A stretch of DNA of 32,361 nt, taken from assembly GCA_964457215.1 (NCBI GenBank), contig CAYWGE010000003.1, positions 1 through 32,361 of the forward strand, given 5' to 3'. A program made the position numbers and the translations under genes. A model generated the notes under the pieces. The model worked only from the letters and a program-made list of their open reading frames with translations. It did no database searches and was not told the origin of the DNA. Position 1 is the first letter of the stretch. Each line of letters starts with the position of its first letter. Origin of the DNA: an uncultured Pseudomonadota bacterium. Its GTDB lineage: Bacteria; UBA10199; JADFYH01. Shown here piece by piece: positions 1,322 through 10,593 of this stretch.

Positions 1322-2980
1322 TTACTTGATTCCGTAGGATTTTAGCTTCTCATATAAAGTGGATTTCGCAATTCCCAAGGCTCTTGCAGCCGCTTGACGA
1401 TTTCCCTCGTGAACACGAAGTTCTCGTAAAATCATCTCTTTTTCTAGGTTTTGGAGATTGGATTGAGTGGGAATAGAATTTAAAGGAAAAGAGCTTAACG
1501 CTTCTTCAGGTTCGGGAAAAAGTGAGGCGGGTGATTCAAGTTCTTTTTTTCCTATTTCCGGGCCAGTAGCCAATACAATCGCCCGTTGGACAATATTCTT
1601 AAGTTCTCGAACATTTCCTCTCCAAACCTGCGATTCTAAATAACGATTGGCTTCTTCGTTAAAACGTAATTTTTTACCCGCCGGAAGCATAGTTTTCAGA
1701 AAATGTTGGGCTAAGAGTATGATGTCTTCTTTTCGTTCTCGCAGTGGAGGAATCAAGACAGGAAAAACATAAAGACGAAAAAACAAGTCTTCTCGAAAAG
1801 CACCTTCTTTGACTTTCAACGATAAATCCCGATGCGTGGCACAAACCACTCTTACGTCAACTGAAACATCTTGATTGCCCCCTACCCTCCTTAATTTCCC
1901 CGTTTCTAAAACGCGTAACAAGGTGGCTTGAAGATCTAAAGGCAACTCTCCAATTTCGTCTAAGAATAAAGTTCCGCCTTTGGCTTGCTCAAATACACCT
2001 ATTCTTTGTTGCTGCGCCCCGGTAAAAGCACCTTTTTCATGGCCAAATAATTCACTTTGAATAAGCTCCCGAGAGATAGCCCCACAATTAATAGCAACCC
2101 AGGGTTTTAAATGACGAGGAGATAAGTCGTGAATAGAACGAGCGACTAATTCTTTTCCTGTTCCAGTTTCTCCCAGAATACAAACGGTGGCTTCGGTAGG
2201 AGCGACTTGTAACAATACACGATAAAGCTCCCGCATACTCGGGGAGCTCCCCACAATCGAACCTAGAAAATTTTCTTTCGTGGGCTCAAGCGTTTTAGTT
2301 TCGGAGAGATAGTGTAAACACAGCTGTGTTTTTCCGATTATGAGCGTACTTCCTTCTTCAAGCTGTGCCTCCCGGACTTTTACGCCATTTACCAAAGTTC
2401 CATTAGTAGAACCCAAATCGAGTAGAGAAAGATGGTTTTCTTTCACAACGATCTTGGCATGAACTTCTGAGGCATAAGAATCTTCTAAAACCAAATCACA
2501 ACTGCGCCCTTTACCCAGAGTTGTTACGGGTTGAGTAATGCGATACCGTCGTTCGGTTTTCTGTGGCTCTTTGACTAAAATTTCTAGCTGATCTGCCGTA
2601 TAAGTCTTTGCATGACTTAAGTAAGAAGCATTCACCACTAAAGTATTTTGGCCTGCGGCTTGTGAGACATAAGTCTCTTCTACTAAATTATTTTCAAGAG
2701 AAGCAGAATAAGTGAGTTGCCAGGGGCCAACTTCGAGGGAAGTGCCCTCCTGAAAAGGGGAAGACTCCACCGGTTTTCCTTTTACAATAAGAGGGAGTTG
2801 CCCCATGTTTTTAGCAAAATAAATTCCTTCGGATTGATAAATGATTAACTGAACACGAGAGATGGCTTCATCCGTTAAAATAATATCACATTCTGCACTT
2901 CGCCCAACTTTAAGGGTAGTTTGACGCAAAGGAAAACGAAGCAGGGTCTGACCACCCTGGGAAAGTAAAATTTCCGCCAT
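1322..2980 (-). CDS. Sigma54-dependent transcriptional activator (bEBP) with two N-terminal FHA-like domains
   Basis: ORF 1322..3130 trimmed to ATG 2980 (MAEILLSQ...), with GAGGGA ~7 nt upstream. FHA 1 is divergent ([22 protein letters not shown]). FHA 2 is canonical ([30 protein letters not shown]). The AAA+ core has Walker A GETGTGKE, the [13 protein letters not shown] (GAFTGA) loop and FLDEIGE. The C-terminus has a Fis-type HTH ([18 protein letters not shown]). Confidence 0.9.
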
Positions 2981-3136
2981 AATGCATCCCTCTCTCTCGA
3001 TTACAAATACGGTAGGTAAAAATCGACTAACGATAACCTCTGCGATTGTCAAACACTTCGCAGGGGGCGTTTTCATATTAAAGCAGAAAATATGCCAGCG
3101 GGAGAATGGGCCTAAAAAGAGAATAAACAAGAAAAA

Positions 3137-3186
3137 GTGTCCGACTTTCGGACGCTTTAAAAAAAATGTGTCCGGTTTCCGGACGC
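3137..3186. promoter_or_regulatory. Two tandem palindrome-containing 19-nt sites, candidate enhancer (UAS) for the adjacent sigma54 activator
   Basis: The sites are GTGTCCGACTTTCGGACGC (3137-3155) and GTGTCCGGTTTCCGGACGC (3168-3186). Each contains a 6+6 inverted repeat (GTCCGA/TCGGAC and GTCCGG/CCGGAC). They are offset by 31 bp, about three helical turns. The second site is ~60 bp upstream of the -24 element at 3238. Confidence 0.5.
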
Positions 3187-3236
3187 CCCCTCACTCCTAT
3201 TTATCCCTATTCCTTAATAAAGATAGAAAAACAGTT

Positions 3237-3252
3237 TGGCATAGTTCCTGCT
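3237..3252 (+). promoter_or_regulatory. Sigma54 (-24/-12) promoter
   Basis: TGGCATAGTTCCTGCT has GG at 3238-3239 and GC at 3250-3251, spaced exactly as in the TGGCAC-N5-TTGCW consensus. It lies in the divergent region next to a sigma54 activator gene. The predicted +1 is near 3263, only ~2 nt before ATG 3265. Confidence 0.55.
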
Positions 3253-3264
3253 TTGTTTTCGTTC

Positions 3265-4323
3265 ATGGAAACAAAAATCGAAAAAACAAATCCACTTTCT
3301 AGACTATTCCCCCATTTACATACTCCTTTTGATAAAGTGCTCCCAAAAGAAAACGTAAAACTTCTTGCGCACGAAAGCAGGCTTAAACTTTCTCAACTCG
3401 AAAAGCGGCATTCTTTTACTTCAGATATTTCTTTTGAAATTAATCCTCCCCTTAAAAAATCTTTCGGTGATCGTGGAGGTGATTTTCTAAAAGGACTTGC
3501 CTGGGATGGGCCTAAAGAGATGGTTAGCGGGCTGATACAATTAAGTCCCTTCGATAATATCGCCCGACATGTCTCACAAGAATGGCAAGAGCCTGGATAT
3601 CATTGGAATAAATTACAAAGCGCTGAAGGTCGTAGAGAACTTTCAAAGGAACAAATGCGAGCGACTCCGGGAGTCGAAGCGGCAGAAGCTTTGGCTACCT
3701 TTGTTTTTCGCCCTATTCAAACTTTCAATGCCGCAAAAGAACATTGCAAAACGAACTGGCAGAGTGATGAGGGTAAAGGGAAAATGGCATTTGATGTAGT
3801 GAGTAGTATTTTGCCCCTCCTAAAATGGGAGAAAATAGGAAAATTAGTTCAAATTCGAAAACTAGCGTTCCCAGATCTAACTTATTTATCTCTTGAATCC
3901 AAAGTTTCAAAAATTCCCTCAGGATTTAAAAATTTAGAAGAATTTAAAGAAATAGGTTCCCAAATTTATCAAACTTTGGAAAAAAATGGTTTCCCTGATT
4001 CACAAGTCCATATTCGTGGAAGTGCTGTTACTGGAATAAACTGGAAAACAGGGAATCCTTTTGACTTTGAAAGACGAAGTGACTTTGATATCGCCATATC
4101 TAGCCCTCAGCTCTTAGGAAAAACGCAAGAAACCGGGATTATACTTCTAAACGAGCACAGAACTTGGCCTATTAAACAGACCGGTCAACTCAAAAAATTA
4201 GGCCTTTACGAATTAACTCAAACACTTCGACAACAAACTCAAAGAAAAATAAGCTTTGTTATTTACGATTCAGAGCAAACAATAACGAAACGAGGACCAC
4301 ATCTTCGTTTTCCAAAGGAGTAG
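3265..4323 (+). CDS. Hypothetical 352-aa protein with a C-terminal Pol-beta-type minimal nucleotidyltransferase signature
   Basis: ORF 3166..4323 trimmed to ATG 3265 (METKIEK...), because 3166-3264 holds the palindromes and the -24/-12 element. The C-terminal ~120 aa carry VHIRGSAVTG-x14-SDFDIAISS (GS...DxD followed by a hydrophobic strand) and a later ISFVIYDSE, a candidate third acidic residue. No signal peptide. I do not recognise the N-terminal ~230 aa. The start is uncertain because there is no SD. Confidence 0.65.
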   Translation: METKIEKTNPLSRLFPHLHTPFDKVLPKENVKLLAHESRLKLSQLEKRHSFTSDISFEINPPLKKSFGDRGGDFLKGLAWDGPKEMVSGLIQLSPFDNIARHVSQEWQEPGYHWNKLQSAEGRRELSKEQMRATPGVEAAEALATFVFRPIQTFNAAKEHCKTNWQSDEGKGKMAFDVVSSILPLLKWEKIGKLVQIRKLAFPDLTYLSLESKVSKIPSGFKNLEEFKEIGSQIYQTLEKNGFPDSQVHIRGSAVTGINWKTGNPFDFERRSDFDIAISSPQLLGKTQETGIILLNEHRTWPIKQTGQLKKLGLYELTQTLRQQTQRKISFVIYDSEQTITKRGPHLRFPKE

Positions 4324-4325
4324 TT

Positions 4326-4658
4326 ATGCGAGTAGATGATTTATACGGATTAAAGACAGGAAACTTTGAGAAAATCCGCAAACAACTTGAACGATTTTTA
4401 AGGATTACTTTTATTGCCAGAGAAAGTGAATACGATGGCAATTATTACTCTTTAGACTTCAAACAAGGTGACGAACTTATTTTTCAAACCAATTATTGTT
4501 TTGTAAATGAAAATCAGGAAGAAGAGTGGTCGGAACCTGATTTTAAAGAATTTAACATTTTGATTCGTATCGAAAATACTGAGCGTTCTGGCGAATGGGA
4601 ACTTTTCCTTAAAACAAATTTCCCAAATTTTATACTACTTAGAAAAGAGAATTATTAA
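4326..4658 (+). CDS. Small acidic, histidine-free partner protein (candidate immunity/antidote or regulatory subunit)
   Basis: The ATG lies 2 nt after the upstream TAG stop. AAGGAG (4315-4320) sits 5 nt upstream, inside the end of the preceding gene. 110 aa, rich in E/D/N/F, with no His, so no HEPN Rx4-6H motif. I recognise no family. Confidence 0.65.
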   Translation: MRVDDLYGLKTGNFEKIRKQLERFLRITFIARESEYDGNYYSLDFKQGDELIFQTNYCFVNENQEEEWSEPDFKEFNILIRIENTERSGEWELFLKTNFPNFILLRKENY

Positions 4659-4677: not shown

Positions 4678-5475
4678 TTAATCAACATTCCCTGCCAACT
4701 CTTCAGCCTGGGCAATCAACTCCGGGCTCGCCTGAGCATATTCTTTAAGATAAGAAAGATCATGGCTAACTTGATCCATGCGTCCCATACTTTTCATGAG
4801 ATTCATGTGTTGAACAACGGCTTGTCCCCAATGCGAATAATCTAAGTGCTGAGTGATGAGTTGATTTAAAACCTGCTCAGCTCGGGCATAGTCCTTATCA
4901 ATCAAATGACGAAGAGCAATTTGATGTTGAAAAGAAGCGACGGCTTCAATGGTAGATTGCTCAATGCCTGCCACATCGACGTGTCGTAAAACGGGTCGTT
5001 CAAGATCCGGAATCACACTTAAAGCCGTATTCCAATCAGCCATGCGATAGTTCAAAAAAGCATTTTTCACAGCAGGAGAATTTTGGACAGAAAAACTCCC
5101 AGCCGGCCCAAAAGCTTCGTGAGTTTGTTGGCTACCCAAGCGTAAGGTGGGAAGTTCATTTTTAAAATAAAGAGCTCCCCCTAAAGTGATTGTAAAAACA
5201 GTCAAGCCGACCAAAGCGGGATGTAAAAAAGCGGCAGAAATACGCTTAAATAAAGAGATTTTGGGCTCCACTAATTTTAGAACTTTTTCATTGAGATGAG
5301 CGGGAGGATAAACATCAGGAAGATTGCGATAAAAGAGAGCTTGAGTGCTTTGAAAACCTTGAAGGGTACTTTCACAGTCGGCGCACTGAGCCAAATGAAT
5401 TTGAAGCTCTGGAGAAGAGACTTCATCTTCATAGAGTAAACTGACCAATTCGTCTTTAAAATTTTCACAATTCAT
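4678..5475 (-). CDS. Membrane-spanning zinc-binding (ZAS-type) anti-sigma factor
   Basis: N-terminal HLAQCADC (H-x3-C-x2-C) zf-HC2 motif. Single TM segment AAFLHPALVGLTVFTITLGGALYF. Starts 11 nt downstream of the ECF sigma gene. Confidence 0.8.
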   Translation of the reverse strand: MNCENFKDELVSLLYEDEVSSPELQIHLAQCADCESTLQGFQSTQALFYRNLPDVYPPAHLNEKVLKLVEPKISLFKRISAAFLHPALVGLTVFTITLGGALYFKNELPTLRLGSQQTHEAFGPAGSFSVQNSPAVKNAFLNYRMADWNTALSVIPDLERPVLRHVDVAGIEQSTIEAVASFQHQIALRHLIDKDYARAEQVLNQLITQHLDYSHWGQAVVQHMNLMKSMGRMDQVSHDLSYLKEYAQASPELIAQAEELAGNVD

Positions 5476-5486
5476 AAAACAGACCT

Positions 5487-6110
5487 TTACTTTATAAACG
5501 AACGCTCTTTTAAAGGATTAAGTTCTTTAAACCTTGATTTTTCTATATATTTTCTTAATGCCTCCATGGCATAGCGCATACGACTTTTAACAGTGTTTAC
5601 CGATACCCCTAAAATTTCAGCAATTTCTTCAAATTTTAAGCCCGATTTTTCACGCATTAAAAAGACTTCTCGTTGGTCATCGTTGATGGTTTTTAGGGCT
5701 TCTTCCAAAATTTGACGGATCTGAGCATCCGAATTTTTTTCATCGGCACCACTTCCTTCGAAGGCAATCGTATCATGTAGCGTGCGATCGGAATCTTCCC
5801 CAAAAGTATCATCCATCGACACATTTTTTCGTAAACGCTGTTTGCGGTGATGGTCGATACAAAGATTACGAACAATGGTAAAAAGCCAGGTAGAGAATTT
5901 TGCAGTGGGTTGCCAAGTCGGAGTAGCACGATGCATTTTTACAAAAACATGCTGGAAGATTTCTTCGCTATCTTGTTCATTGCCTGTATAACGTAAAATG
6001 TAAGAAAAGACGCTCTTTTTATAACGGCGAAAAATCTCTTCGAAGGCGATAGCCTGCCCTTGTTGGTATGCGCGCATTACTTCTTCATCGGAATTTGCAA
6101 GATAGTTCAT
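5487..6110 (-). CDS. ECF-type RNA polymerase sigma factor (sigma-70 group 4)
   Basis: Region 2 (FSTWLFTIVRNLCIDHHRKQ) and region 4 HTH (FEEIAEILGVSVNTVKSRMRYA). Its ATG (6110-6108) overlaps the trpA TGA (6109-6107). Confidence 0.9.
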   Translation of the reverse strand: MNYLANSDEEVMRAYQQGQAIAFEEIFRRYKKSVFSYILRYTGNEQDSEEIFQHVFVKMHRATPTWQPTAKFSTWLFTIVRNLCIDHHRKQRLRKNVSMDDTFGEDSDRTLHDTIAFEGSGADEKNSDAQIRQILEEALKTINDDQREVFLMREKSGLKFEEIAEILGVSVNTVKSRMRYAMEALRKYIEKSRFKELNPLKERSFIK

Positions 6111-6904
6111 GAAAGTACTAAAGCCTTTTTGAGTTTTCTTACCTCAGCTTCTAAAGCCTGAATAGCCTTAGTTCCTTTTTTCTTCTCCAACAAAGAAACC
6201 AGCATAGACCCCACAACTACTCCATCGCTTGCTGAAGAAAGATTTTTTGCATCGTCCGCACTCCGGATTCCAAAGCCAATGCAGAGCGGAAGAGAAATGC
6301 TCTCTTTAATTTTCGCCACATGAGTGCGAATGTCTTTTAAAGCTTGAAGACGAGTTCCCGTAATTCCCGTAACCGAAACATAATAGACAAAACCCGAAGC
6401 TTTTTGTTTAACCAAACGAATTCGACTGGCATTGGCGGTAGGAGTTAAAAGATAAATCAAATCTAAACCATTCTGATGAGCTGGTTTGTGTAGTTCATCA
6501 GACTCTTCAGGTGGGAGATCCACCACAATCAAACCGTCCACTCCGGCTTTTGCAGCCTGATGACAGAAAGACTCCAAACCAAACTGCAAAATAGGATTAT
6601 AATATCCCATTAAAATAATGGGGATTTGGGTCTTTTGTCGAAGTTGTTGAACGAGTTTCAAGATCTCTTTCAAACCTACTTGATGTTTTAAAGCGCGATC
6701 AGAAGATCTTTGAATAATGGGACCATCTGCCATGGGATCTGAAAAAGGCACTCCTAATTCGATTAAATCCGCTCCAGCTTTTTCTAAAGAAAGCACTATT
6801 TTTTCGGTGGCAGTAAGGGTGGGATCACCTGCCGTCACAAAAGTAATCAACCCTTTTTCATTTCGTTGTTTTAATTCTTTAAATTTCTTTTGAATACGAT
6901 TCAT
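6107..6904 (-). CDS. trpA: Tryptophan synthase alpha chain
   Basis: Typical TrpA sequence (ELGVPFSDPMADGPIIQ, GFVYYVSVTGITG). Last gene of the trp cluster. Confidence 0.95.
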   Translation of the reverse strand: MNRIQKKFKELKQRNEKGLITFVTAGDPTLTATEKIVLSLEKAGADLIELGVPFSDPMADGPIIQRSSDRALKHQVGLKEILKLVQQLRQKTQIPIILMGYYNPILQFGLESFCHQAAKAGVDGLIVVDLPPEESDELHKPAHQNGLDLIYLLTPTANASRIRLVKQKASGFVYYVSVTGITGTRLQALKDIRTHVAKIKESISLPLCIGFGIRSADDAKNLSSASDGVVVGSMLVSLLEKKKGTKAIQALEAEVRKLKKALVLS

Positions 6905-9585: not shown

Positions 9586-10593
9586 TTAATGAGCGAGAGA
9601 AAAGTCTCTCAATTTTTGTAAAACTTCATACGCTTTACCGGAATTCACAGAATGCTCTGCTCGTGCATACGATTCTTGAAGAGAAAAATTAGAATGAATT
9701 CTCAAAACCGCTGCTGCATTCAATAAGGCAACGTCTCTCCGAGCCCCCTTCTCTTTTCCACGTAAAATAGATTCAATAAGTTGAGCGTTTTTTAAGGCAT
9801 CTCCCCCCAACAAATCCTCCACACGACAAGGATTCAATTTTAAATCGGACGCCTCAAAGGTTTTTTCTTCAATTCCTTTTGGACTCACTTCGTGAATCCA
9901 ATTTTTCCCGGTTAAGGAAAACTCATCTAGACCTTGTTCATTATAAACCACCCAGTAATGCCGAACTTTTTCTTCGAATAAAACCTGGCTCAAAAGAGCG
10001 AGATCTTTTTTACTACTCACGCCCACCAAACCTTTAGACGTATGCGCAGGATTCGCAAGAGGCCCTAGTAAATTAAAAATTGTTTTGACCCCTAACTCTT
10101 TCCGAAGTTTTGCGACTTGTTTCAAAATAGGATGATAAAGAGGAGCAAACAAAAAGACAAAATTCGTTTCTTGAAAACATTTTTGAGCTATATCGGGAGA
10201 AAAATCTACTTTTATACCTAAGGCCTCTAAAACATCTGCACTACCACATTGAGAACTTGCCGCACGGTTTCCGTGTTTTATAATAGGGATACCTGCTCCT
10301 GCCGCAATCAATGCGGCACAAGTTGAAATGTTAAAAGTCCCTGCGCCATCGCCTCCGGTCCCACAAATATCAAGACCTTCCGCACCGGATATAAAGGGGA
10401 TTTCATGGATACGCAAGACCTGTAACAATGCTCGGATATCTTCCGACAAAACTCCTTGAGTATTTAAATGGAGTAAGAATTTCTTAGATTCTTCGGGATC
10501 AAACGAGGCAGAGATTAAGGCTTCAAAACATTCTTTTCGTTCGGCGAAGGAAGGACTTTTATTCTTAAGAATTTTTGCCAAAGAAGAGTTCAT
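9586..10593 (-). CDS. trpD: Anthranilate phosphoribosyltransferase
   Basis: DICGTGGDGAGTFNIST and KHGNRAASSQCGSADVLEALG motifs. Confidence 0.95.
   Translation of the reverse strand: MNSSLAKILKNKSPSFAERKECFEALISASFDPEESKKFLLHLNTQGVLSEDIRALLQVLRIHEIPFISGAEGLDICGTGGDGAGTFNISTCAALIAAGAGIPIIKHGNRAASSQCGSADVLEALGIKVDFSPDIAQKCFQETNFVFLFAPLYHPILKQVAKLRKELGVKTIFNLLGPLANPAHTSKGLVGVSSKKDLALLSQVLFEEKVRHYWVVYNEQGLDEFSLTGKNWIHEVSPKGIEEKTFEASDLKLNPCRVEDLLGGDALKNAQLIESILRGKEKGARRDVALLNAAAVLRIHSNFSLQESYARAEHSVNSGKAYEVLQKLRDFSLAH

Follow-up and report, generated by a model that had tools for sequence, protein, structure and literature searches.

A putative toxin-immunity operon with a nucleotidyltransferase-like toxin domain and predicted sigma-54 control in an uncultured Pseudomonadota bacterium

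Here we describe a two-gene cassette and its divergently transcribed neighbor on a stretch of 32,361 nucleotides from an uncultured Pseudomonadota bacterium (contig CAYWGE010000003.1 of assembly GCA_964457215.1, positions 1 to 32,361), which we refer to throughout as the window. The cassette consists of gene 1, which encodes a basic protein of 352 residues (isoelectric point (pI) 9.4), and gene 2, which encodes a small acidic protein devoid of histidine; across an intergenic region of 284 bp, and facing away from them, lies the gene for a sigma-54 enhancer-binding activator with two FHA domains. On balance we favor the reading that this is an operon of the polymorphic-toxin kind, coding for a toxin with a nucleotidyltransferase (NTase) fold and its immunity partner and controlled by sigma-54 and the FHA activator.

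An initial annotation, made from the letters of the window, had placed a two-FHA activator back to back with a two-gene cassette, had noted the motifs HIRGSAVTG, SDFDIAISS and ISFVIYD in gene 1, and had pointed to an acidic, histidine-free gene 2 of 110 residues with its Shine-Dalgarno sequence inside gene 1; all of these features were found where expected. The motifs lie at residues 249-257, 270-280 (as RRSDFDIAISS) and 329-335 of gene 1. The ATG of gene 2 follows the TAG stop of gene 1 (4321-4323) by 2 nt, and the position of the AAGGAG sequence within gene 1 indicates that the two genes are probably translationally coupled. Neither gene is a chance open reading frame (ORF), as homologues exist for both. 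Two gene starts had to be revised. The activator ORF extends over 1322..3130 (602 aa); its TTG start was rejected in favor of the ATG at 2980 (552 aa), since it lies upstream of the predicted minus-strand sigma-54 promoter and the gene call on L002, a near-identical 185-kb contig from the Joint Genome Institute (JGI), is likewise 552 aa. A start of gene 1 at 3166 (385 aa), given by the mechanical ORF and by the JGI call, was rejected for lying upstream of the predicted plus-strand sigma-54 promoter; the N-termini of homologues (MTQ.., MTL.., MNTQ..) back the start at 3265.

Table 1. Positions of the genes, domains and regulatory elements of the locus (window coordinates unless another locus is named).
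Feature	Position	Strand	Basis
Sigma-54 enhancer-binding activator, FHA1-FHA2-AAA+(GAFTGA)-HTH_8, 552 aa	1322..2980	-	Pfam scan and gene call on L002
Fis-type helix-turn-helix (HTH_8) DNA-binding domain of activator	1334..1453	-	PF02954, E=2.8e-10
AAA+ sigma-54 interaction domain with GAFTGA	1757..2257	-	PF00158, E=2.1e-69, residues 292-458 of the 602-aa ORF
FHA domain 2, canonical phosphothreonine-binding GR, SEVH, STNGT	2333..2524	-	Pfam, residues 203-266 of the 602-aa ORF
FHA domain 1, degenerate: GR kept, SxxH reads SRVQ, NG absent	2708..2914	-	boundaries and motifs by eye
Predicted sigma-54 (-24/-12) promoter TGGCATATTTTCTGCT facing activator gene	3082..3097	-	exact TGGCAY-N5-YTGCW match; predicted leader ~90 nt
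Palindrome GTCCGACTTTCGGAC, candidate activator site (upstream activating sequence, UAS) 1	3139..3153	.	exact GTCCG-N5-CGGAC
Palindrome GTCCGGTTTCCGGAC, candidate activator site UAS 2	3170..3184	.	exact GTCCG-N5-CGGAC
Predicted sigma-54 promoter TGGCATAGTTCCTGCT for toxin-immunity operon	3237..3252	+	exact TGGCAY-N5-YTGCW match
Promoter-to-ATG stretches	window 3237-3267; L065 644-674; L067 9972-10003; L068 356-386; L069 9972-10003		
Gene 1, predicted free-standing toxin: variable head, then N-domain, then C-terminal toxin domain, 352 aa	3265..4323	+	
Conserved N-terminal domain (N-domain), residues ~64-200	3454..3864	+	common only to P0004-P0007 among other clusters
Predicted C-terminal toxin domain, NTase-like, residues ~214-352	3904..4320	+	family search, alignment, AlphaFold model (pLDDT 93.3)
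Shine-Dalgarno sequence AAGGAG for gene 2, within gene 1	4315..4320	+	read from sequence
Gene 2, predicted cognate immunity protein, acidic, pI 4.7, 110 aa	4326..4658	+	homology to ORFs 3' of toxin domains

The C-terminal part of gene 1 belongs to a large family. An exhaustive phmmer search over 1.84 billion cluster representatives (E≤1e-3) returned at least 600 proteins matching gene 1, and among the matches listed all but four cover only its residues ~214-351; a word-indexed homologue search returned two proteins for gene 1 (a near-identical copy and a relative of 213 aa) and one for gene 2. In 132 of the 151 best of these at least 600 matches the domain ends no more than six residues from the protein C-terminus. 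The proteins that bear it span 103 to 3761 aa, and the long carriers contain RHS repeats, DUF6443, Laminin_G_3 or VWA domains; among them are a prePAAR-PAAR-DUF6531-RHS protein of Serratia ureilytica and a T7SS_signal-RHS protein of an actinobacterium. The JGI product names of several carriers read 'filamentous hemagglutinin' or 'RHS repeats', and one carrier has a pre-toxin PT-TG domain. Because the domain occupies the extreme C-terminal position on many different carriers, we identify the C-terminus of gene 1, from these sequence relationships, as a predicted polymorphic-toxin C-terminal domain; a shared tip on varied carriers is the defining pattern of such domains (Zhang et al., 2012, PMC3482391).

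Scanning a single genome from each species with a six-sequence alignment yielded 62 toxin-domain loci, in Pseudomonas, Burkholderia, Serratia, Gilliamella, Snodgrassella, Novosphingobium, Amycolatopsis, Frankia, Bacteroidota, Chloroflexi, Planctomycetota and Turicibacter, a distribution that is patchy across phyla. Short copies of the domain lie in arrays near glutamine-deamidase toxin, SUKH/SMI1_KNR4, Imm26 and CdiA_C cassettes. In two unrelated arrays the glutamine-deamidase (PF15644) cassette adjoins the NTase-like cassette (L001 1129-2190 and L066 4324-5740); the second of these is the Pseudomonas aeruginosa plasmid NZ_CP116719, in whose record the toxin fragment is unannotated. In two further loci (L071 7125-10601 and L072 2930-10452) short toxin and immunity copies sit by genes resembling those of phages or gene transfer agents (Rcc01698_C, Glyco_hydro_108 and a Phage_portal-CdiA_C fusion), neighbors that hint at phage-particle-associated delivery in some lineages.

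With an iterated hidden Markov model, the ORF immediately 3' of the toxin domain was identified as a homologue of gene 2 in 55 of 63 loci, in Proteobacteria, Actinobacteria, Bacteroidota, Chloroflexi, Planctomycetota and Firmicutes. These ORFs encode 104-122 aa and start between -3 and +15 nt from the toxin stop; in the first distant relative (L001) the toxin is followed by an overlapping ORF of 112 aa whose product is 27% identical to gene 2 (E=8e-12). The charge difference between the partners is a property of both families, the median pI being 9.4 among toxin domains and 4.6 among immunity proteins. The immunity family alignment has no Pfam or PDB relative, and the gene 2 homologue on the P. 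aeruginosa plasmid is labelled 'hypothetical protein' in RefSeq. Because 55 of the 63 toxin-domain loci have an adjoining homologue of it, gene 2 is the predicted cognate immunity protein of gene 1. This bears out the proposal of the initial annotation that a large enzyme with a small neutralizer forms a toxin-immunity pair; its alternative of a nucleotide-signalling defence pair was not upheld, as neither protein has a match in PADLOC.

Alignment of 40 diverse members of the toxin-domain family reveals eleven invariant positions (P13, G37, G47, S48, G52, F61, S67, D68, D70, R94 and R122 in domain numbering). The gene 1 residues listed among them (G252, S253, G257, F266, S272, D273, D275, R299 and R327 in gene 1 numbering) are all intact in the window. 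The pattern corresponds to the hG[GS]...[DE]h[DE]h motif of NTases, with G47, S48 and the D68-x-D70 pair invariant in all 40 members. An AlphaFold model of the domain built with a 43-sequence alignment has a predicted local distance difference test score (pLDDT) of 93.3 and a predicted template-modelling score of 0.87. In this model G47 and S48 end a strand (42-46), D70 lies on a second strand (69-74) and D68 just before it, and the order of secondary-structure elements is compatible with an NTase core. In a Foldseek search against the PDB, in which all matches had E≥0.12, 16 of the 17 top matches are NTases of the Pol-beta superfamily (TUT7, CutA, TUT4, Pol mu, the minimal nucleotidyltransferase (MNT) SO_3166, DrrA and Cid1 among them), with CCA-adding enzymes and CdnG further down the list; against BFVD the best match (E=2.4e-3) is an uncharacterised protein, followed by several annotated NTases. 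Below the Pfam thresholds, NTP_transf_2 was matched in 8 of the 40 members (best E 0.015) and Polbeta in 3 (best E 0.014), and in an hhalign comparison (P=0.0019) both GS and DxD lined up with those of a genuine MNT encoded at L067, one of four loci (L065, L067, L068 and L069) that carry gene 1 homologues at ~40% identity. We consider it probable that the toxin domain has a divergent NTase-like fold of the Pol-beta type, and from this we infer NTase chemistry. The NTase signature reported by the initial annotation is borne out in that its residues are invariant across the family; the resemblance of the fold, while dominated by NTases, stays below significance.

The remainder of gene 1 was described by the initial annotation as an unrecognisable N-terminal region of ~230 residues. 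This stands in that its N-terminal 213 residues have no match in Pfam, NCBIfam or the PDB, but the region resolves into a variable head of ~63 residues and a conserved domain of ~137 residues, marked by the motifs FxKG..GP.EM..G, HPGYH, EGR and W..DEGKG. Among the phmmer matches listed, this N-domain was found in just four other protein clusters (P0004-P0007), and a metagenome scan for it added one locus. One of the four, P0007 (L069 10001-10717), combines the N-domain with a sigma-54 promoter sequence and has neither toxin domain nor immunity gene, and may represent either a decayed locus or a sign that the N-domain works alone. The base composition changes along the cassette. Its G+C content is 0.385 in gene 1 and 0.312 in gene 2, against 0.419 for the whole window, and at third codon positions (GC3) it is 0.27 and 0.26, with neighboring genes at 0.31-0.42; within the cassette GC3 is 0.24-0.26 in the toxin domain and gene 2 and 0.29 in residues 1-205 of gene 1. 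The cassette is modestly AT-richer than its surroundings, as the initial annotation had judged by eye, and most clearly so in the toxin domain and gene 2. Its lower GC3 would fit acquisition, in agreement with the accessory origin proposed there. Because P0007 lacks the toxin and because GC3 falls along gene 1, the data would fit an N-domain that serves as a resident module for delivery and to which the toxin and immunity part was added by recombination. A single-sequence AlphaFold model of full-length gene 1 reached a pLDDT of 37.

The divergent gene has the full set of features of an enhancer-binding protein, with an AAA+ domain bearing the GAFTGA loop, which is seen in the translation, a C-terminal HTH and N-terminal FHA domains. 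Pfam matches to its ORF comprise Sigma54_activat, FHA (7.4e-25, in two stretches), Yop-YscD_cpl (in two stretches), AAA_lid_14 and HTH_8, and its matches in NCBIfam and PADLOC are confined to the generic AAA+/HTH core. In L067 a canonical pair of MNT and NTase_sub_bind genes plus an HhH-GPD gene stand where the activator would be.

Between the two divergent transcription units lies a set of sequences that is rare in the surrounding DNA. The sigma-54 promoter pattern TGGCAY-N5-YTGCW has two exact matches in the window, both in the intergenic region, against 0.07 expected by chance; the palindrome GTCCG-N5-CGGAC also has two exact matches, both intergenic, against a chance expectation of 0.33 even with one-mismatch sites included. 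The centers of the palindromes are 31 bp apart, and both promoters point outward from the pair between them. Sigma-54 activators as a rule diverge from their targets and share sites with them, and the layout of two predicted promoters around shared candidate enhancers is the classical one in which such an activator would drive a divergent target and its own gene; the promoter facing the activator implies that this gene may be positively autoregulated.

The same elements recur at the homologous loci. The predicted gene 1 promoter has the C of its -12 GC at position 3251, which is 14 nt ahead of the ATG, and a predicted transcription start at ~3263; at L065, L067, L068 and L069 the corresponding C likewise precedes the ATG by 14 or 15 nt, making five independent loci with that of the window. 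This spacing implies a near-leaderless mRNA for the toxin operon, with a predicted leader of 2-3 nt and no space for a Shine-Dalgarno sequence. In 1.37 Mb of fetched DNA the promoter pattern occurs 15 times (0.011 per kb), and 8 of the 15 occurrences are these sites. Related palindromes are found 88-119 nt ahead of the ATG in the window and in L065, L067 and L068; the copies of these three homologous loci, at 90-110 nt, are exact in L065 (556-570) and degenerate in L067 and L068, and those of L069 lie 217-249 nt upstream. Consensus, spacing, conservation in homologues and upstream candidate enhancer sites are all present at the sequence level, and the proposal of the initial annotation that sigma-54 controls the cassette is strongly supported by them.

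Our observations suggest a model for the activity of this locus. We propose that the toxin domain of gene 1 would use an NTP to attach a nucleotide, in a magnesium-dependent reaction, to an essential macromolecule, thereby killing or arresting cells, and that gene 2 would neutralize it through 1:1 binding. Because the domain is basic and RNA-3'-end NTases are among its structural neighbors, our first mechanistic guess is RNA or tRNA nucleotidylation; the preferred target would be an RNA or tRNA 3' end, as for toxins of the MenT type, with protein AMPylation as the second choice. The lineage-specific N-domain presumably serves export or entry into the target cell. Transcription of the toxin-immunity operon would start at the sigma-54 promoter 2-3 nt before the ATG and be driven by the FHA-FHA activator bound to the two GTCCG-N5-CGGAC palindromes, which could equally serve the activator's own divergent promoter and so create positive feedback. 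Since FHA2 is canonical, a Ser/Thr kinase may switch the activator through a phosphothreonine signal; this gating, raised by the initial annotation, is something that we purely infer.

Several observations weigh against this reading. No recognisable signal peptide or known trafficking domain was found in gene 1 and no secretion-system genes within the 32-kb window, and the cassette is chromosomal and lies amid housekeeping genes. Together with its dedicated and presumably inducible regulation, and with the canonical MNT/NTase_sub_bind pair, reminiscent of toxin-antitoxin (TA) systems, that adjoins one homologous locus, this could describe an intracellular TA or abortive-infection-like module, in which gene 1 is a domesticated, non-exported suicide or dormancy effector that the FHA activator induces on stress or infection and gene 2 acts as the antitoxin. 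We regard this as unlikely, since elsewhere the C-terminal domain is found, in the great majority of cases, at the end of a secreted carrier (Rhs, PAAR, CdiA-like or T7SS signal), the conserved N-domain occurs without the toxin in P0007, as it would for a delivery module, and neither gene was matched in PADLOC; moreover, a single inducible promoter for both genes suits a weapon, whereas a TA switch would need differential protein stability. The location of the domain also speaks against a housekeeping or regulatory NTase with a small regulatory subunit and no toxicity. Minimal NTases do often act on partner proteins, but C-terminal placement on Rhs, PAAR, CdiA-like and PT-TG proteins and in orphan toxin/immunity arrays, a patchy distribution across phyla and a low cassette GC3 make such a role highly improbable. 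The assignment of gene 2 meets its own difficulty at L065 and L068, where the toxin is followed by a different protein of ~155 aa (MSYxLEA...) that is not a homologue of gene 2. These two proteins are related to each other (L065 1699-1889, running off the contig end; L068 1232-1699) and are possibly an alternative immunity family; the toxin domains that precede them read SDWD and have an insert of 5-6 aa, which suggests that immunity may have been switched in this branch.

The chemistry of the putative toxin and the identity of its regulator are open to similar challenge. No Foldseek match to the PDB reached E≤1e-3 (best E 0.12, TM-scores 0.3-0.4), no Pfam NTase model reached its gathering score in the 40 members scanned, and in profile searches of PDB sequences no credible match emerged for the alignments of toxin domain, immunity protein or N-domain, an NTase, AF0614, appearing at E=0.53. 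The spacing from GS to DxD is ~19 residues, longer than the 9-13 residues of classical minimal NTases, and no conserved acidic column that could supply a third carboxylate follows D70 in the 40 members; the D after FVIY is variable, and the sole conserved extra acidic position, the nearly invariant D62, lies upstream of the DxD. With every similarity of fold or profile below significance, and a basic toxin with an acidic immunity protein being typical of nucleases too, the pair could be a toxin and its immunity protein in which the C-terminal domain is a nuclease, a phosphotransferase or a non-enzymatic binder whose likeness to GS...DxD is convergent. Such an outcome we likewise think unlikely, as four independent weak signals converge on one superfamily, and the invariant residues are those of the NTase catalytic motif, which the model puts at a strand end and on the strand that follows. 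On the regulatory side, the initial annotation had linked the two cassette proteins with each other and with an FHA activator; the first link holds, whereas the activator gene adjoins the cassette only in the species of the window and is absent beside L065, L067, L068 and L069, which retain the promoter. Both window palindromes also score as terminator-like hairpins followed by a T-run on the minus strand, the L065 hairpin has a T-run on the plus strand, and the L067 variant (GTCTG-N5-CGGAT, 9904-9918) pairs only as RNA, via G-U. The palindromes might on this evidence be terminators or insulators, and the regulator another sigma-54 activator encoded elsewhere. This alternative appears distinctly unlikely to us, since no minus-strand gene ends upstream of the hairpins and there is nothing to terminate; the two copies stand 31 bp apart, symmetrically between divergent sigma-54 promoters and at classical enhancer distances; their position relative to the promoter is kept across homologues; and shared sites are usual where a sigma-54 activator and its target diverge.

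Taken as a toxin-immunity operon under sigma-54 control, the locus can be compared with several known systems. With the polymorphic toxins (Rhs, CdiA, PT-TG; PMC3482391) it shares an extreme C-terminal domain found on many different N-terminal trafficking parts, an immunity gene immediately downstream, orphan cassette arrays, a lower G+C content in the toxin-immunity part and a wide but patchy spread. C-terminal position, carrier diversity and an adjacent immunity gene are all seen here; a trafficking module was not found for gene 1 within the window. The window protein differs from these toxins in being short (352 aa), in lacking any known carrier or trafficking domain, and in having its own conserved sigma-54 promoter; the Pfam families that came from the PMC3482391 survey include neither its toxin family nor that of its immunity partner. 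Colicins and S-pyocins offer a likeness in layout only, being stand-alone inducible proteins with a variable head, a middle domain, a C-terminal cytotoxic domain and an acidic immunity gene; unlike them, the present locus lacks a lysis gene and control of the SOS or PrtN type, and it shows no homology to the translocation or receptor domains of colicins.

Among systems built on NTases, the MNT (PF01909) of HEPN-MNT pairs resembles the toxin domain in its small size (~135 aa) and in carrying GS and DxD, which are in register by hhalign and which the model of the toxin domain puts at a strand end and on the following strand. In those pairs, however, the NTase is the antitoxin and HEPN the toxin, whereas here the NTase-like domain would be the toxin; the partner encoded by gene 2 is acidic and unrelated, GS and DxD are spaced further apart, and the domain is not a member at the Pfam level. 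Membership in the HEPN-MNT class was rejected, since gene 2 lacks histidine and has no HEPN or NTase_sub_bind match; the initial annotation had been right to set the pair apart from it, gene 2 forming a family of its own. Enzymes of the Pol-beta fold are established as bacterial toxins (MenT/AbiEii and the secreted, RelA/SpoT-like Tas1 and FaRel), which block tRNA 3' ends or make toxic nucleotides. RelA/SpoT-type domains also occur as polymorphic-toxin tips (PMC3482391). The MenT/AbiEii and RelA/SpoT toxins provide a precedent for a toxin of this fold and differ in that the present domain is much smaller and its neutralizing protein belongs to a different family; membership in MenT/AbiEii (DUF1814) or RelA_SpoT was rejected, as neither was among the Pfam matches of the window protein (E≤0.1) or of the 40 members (E≤1). 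Assignment to the antiphage systems that signal through cyclic oligonucleotides, with their CD-NTases (CBASS), or to any other catalogued defence, was rejected with no PADLOC family matched by gene 1 or gene 2.

Regulatory precedents exist as well. Genes for type VI secretion effectors are under the control of sigma-54 activators in Vibrio cholerae (VasH) and P. aeruginosa (Sfa2/Sfa3), and Myxococcus xanthus has FHA-domain sigma-54 activators. The likeness to these lies in the predicted sigma-54 control of antibacterial toxin genes and in the FHA sensory input; the difference lies in a tandem FHA activator that diverges from a single toxin-immunity operon with shared candidate enhancers, in its predicted autoregulatory sigma-54 promoter and near-leaderless target mRNA, and in the absence of nearby secretion genes. 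To our knowledge neither an FHA-FHA activator circuit nor a leaderless sigma-54 promoter has been described for toxin genes.

Gene 1 and gene 2 have no match in Pfam (2025), NCBIfam (2026), PADLOC or the PDB sequences. Within a literature coverage that is incomplete, we found no paper on FHA-activator control of a toxin, on an NTase-fold polymorphic toxin beyond the RelA/SpoT type, or on the toxin or immunity family, for which an earlier description under another name is possible. The toxin and immunity families and the regulatory arrangement are new, while the kind of system is already known; the view of the initial annotation that this is an undescribed module holds for the former, with no curated family or paper found, but not for the latter, which is that of a polymorphic-toxin cassette.

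If the proposed reading is true, the known repertoire of inter-bacterial toxins would gain a minimal Pol-beta-type NTase together with the immunity family that matches it. The family is present in at least six phyla, on carriers predicted to belong to type VI (PAAR-Rhs) and type VII (T7SS_signal-Rhs) secretion systems or named 'filamentous hemagglutinin' by JGI; its hosts include Pseudomonas, Burkholderia, Serratia and bee-gut symbionts, and its members are annotated merely as 'hypothetical protein'. The circuit in the window is compact, with one FHA-FHA activator, two candidate enhancers, two predicted divergent sigma-54 promoters and a predicted near-leaderless toxin mRNA. It could reveal how Ser/Thr-kinase signalling times toxin production and how translation proceeds on sigma-54 transcripts with no ribosome-binding leader; should the double-FHA reading be correct, it would constitute a kinase-gated, switch-like 'fire the toxin' circuit. 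A bolder version of the proposal, which we put forward only tentatively, is that the domain defines an unrecognised, widespread class of NTase-fold toxins with new chemistry, present here as a stand-alone, bacteriocin-like protein fired by a phosphothreonine-sensing double-FHA circuit with positive feedback.

The rest of the window is core chromosome, with the trp operon, ruvABC, rpoA, ribosomal protein genes and one tRNA-Ala. A secreted Laminin_G_3/fn3 protein with a signal peptide (1294-1414 aa) is encoded at 1-1098 on the minus strand of the window, at 4051-7935 of L002 and at 3259-7503 of L067, and is thus found near the toxin gene both in the species of the window and in a distant homologous locus. 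Lying downstream of the activator, it was considered as a part of the module and rejected, as it has no sigma-54 promoter. On the other side of the cassette (window 4678-6904), the gene for an extracytoplasmic function (ECF) sigma factor (5487-6110) overlaps the start of trpA (6107-6904) by 4 nt, with an anti-sigma gene next to it; trpEGDCFBA and the ECF sigma and anti-sigma genes look like a single transcription unit, which is an unusual pairing.

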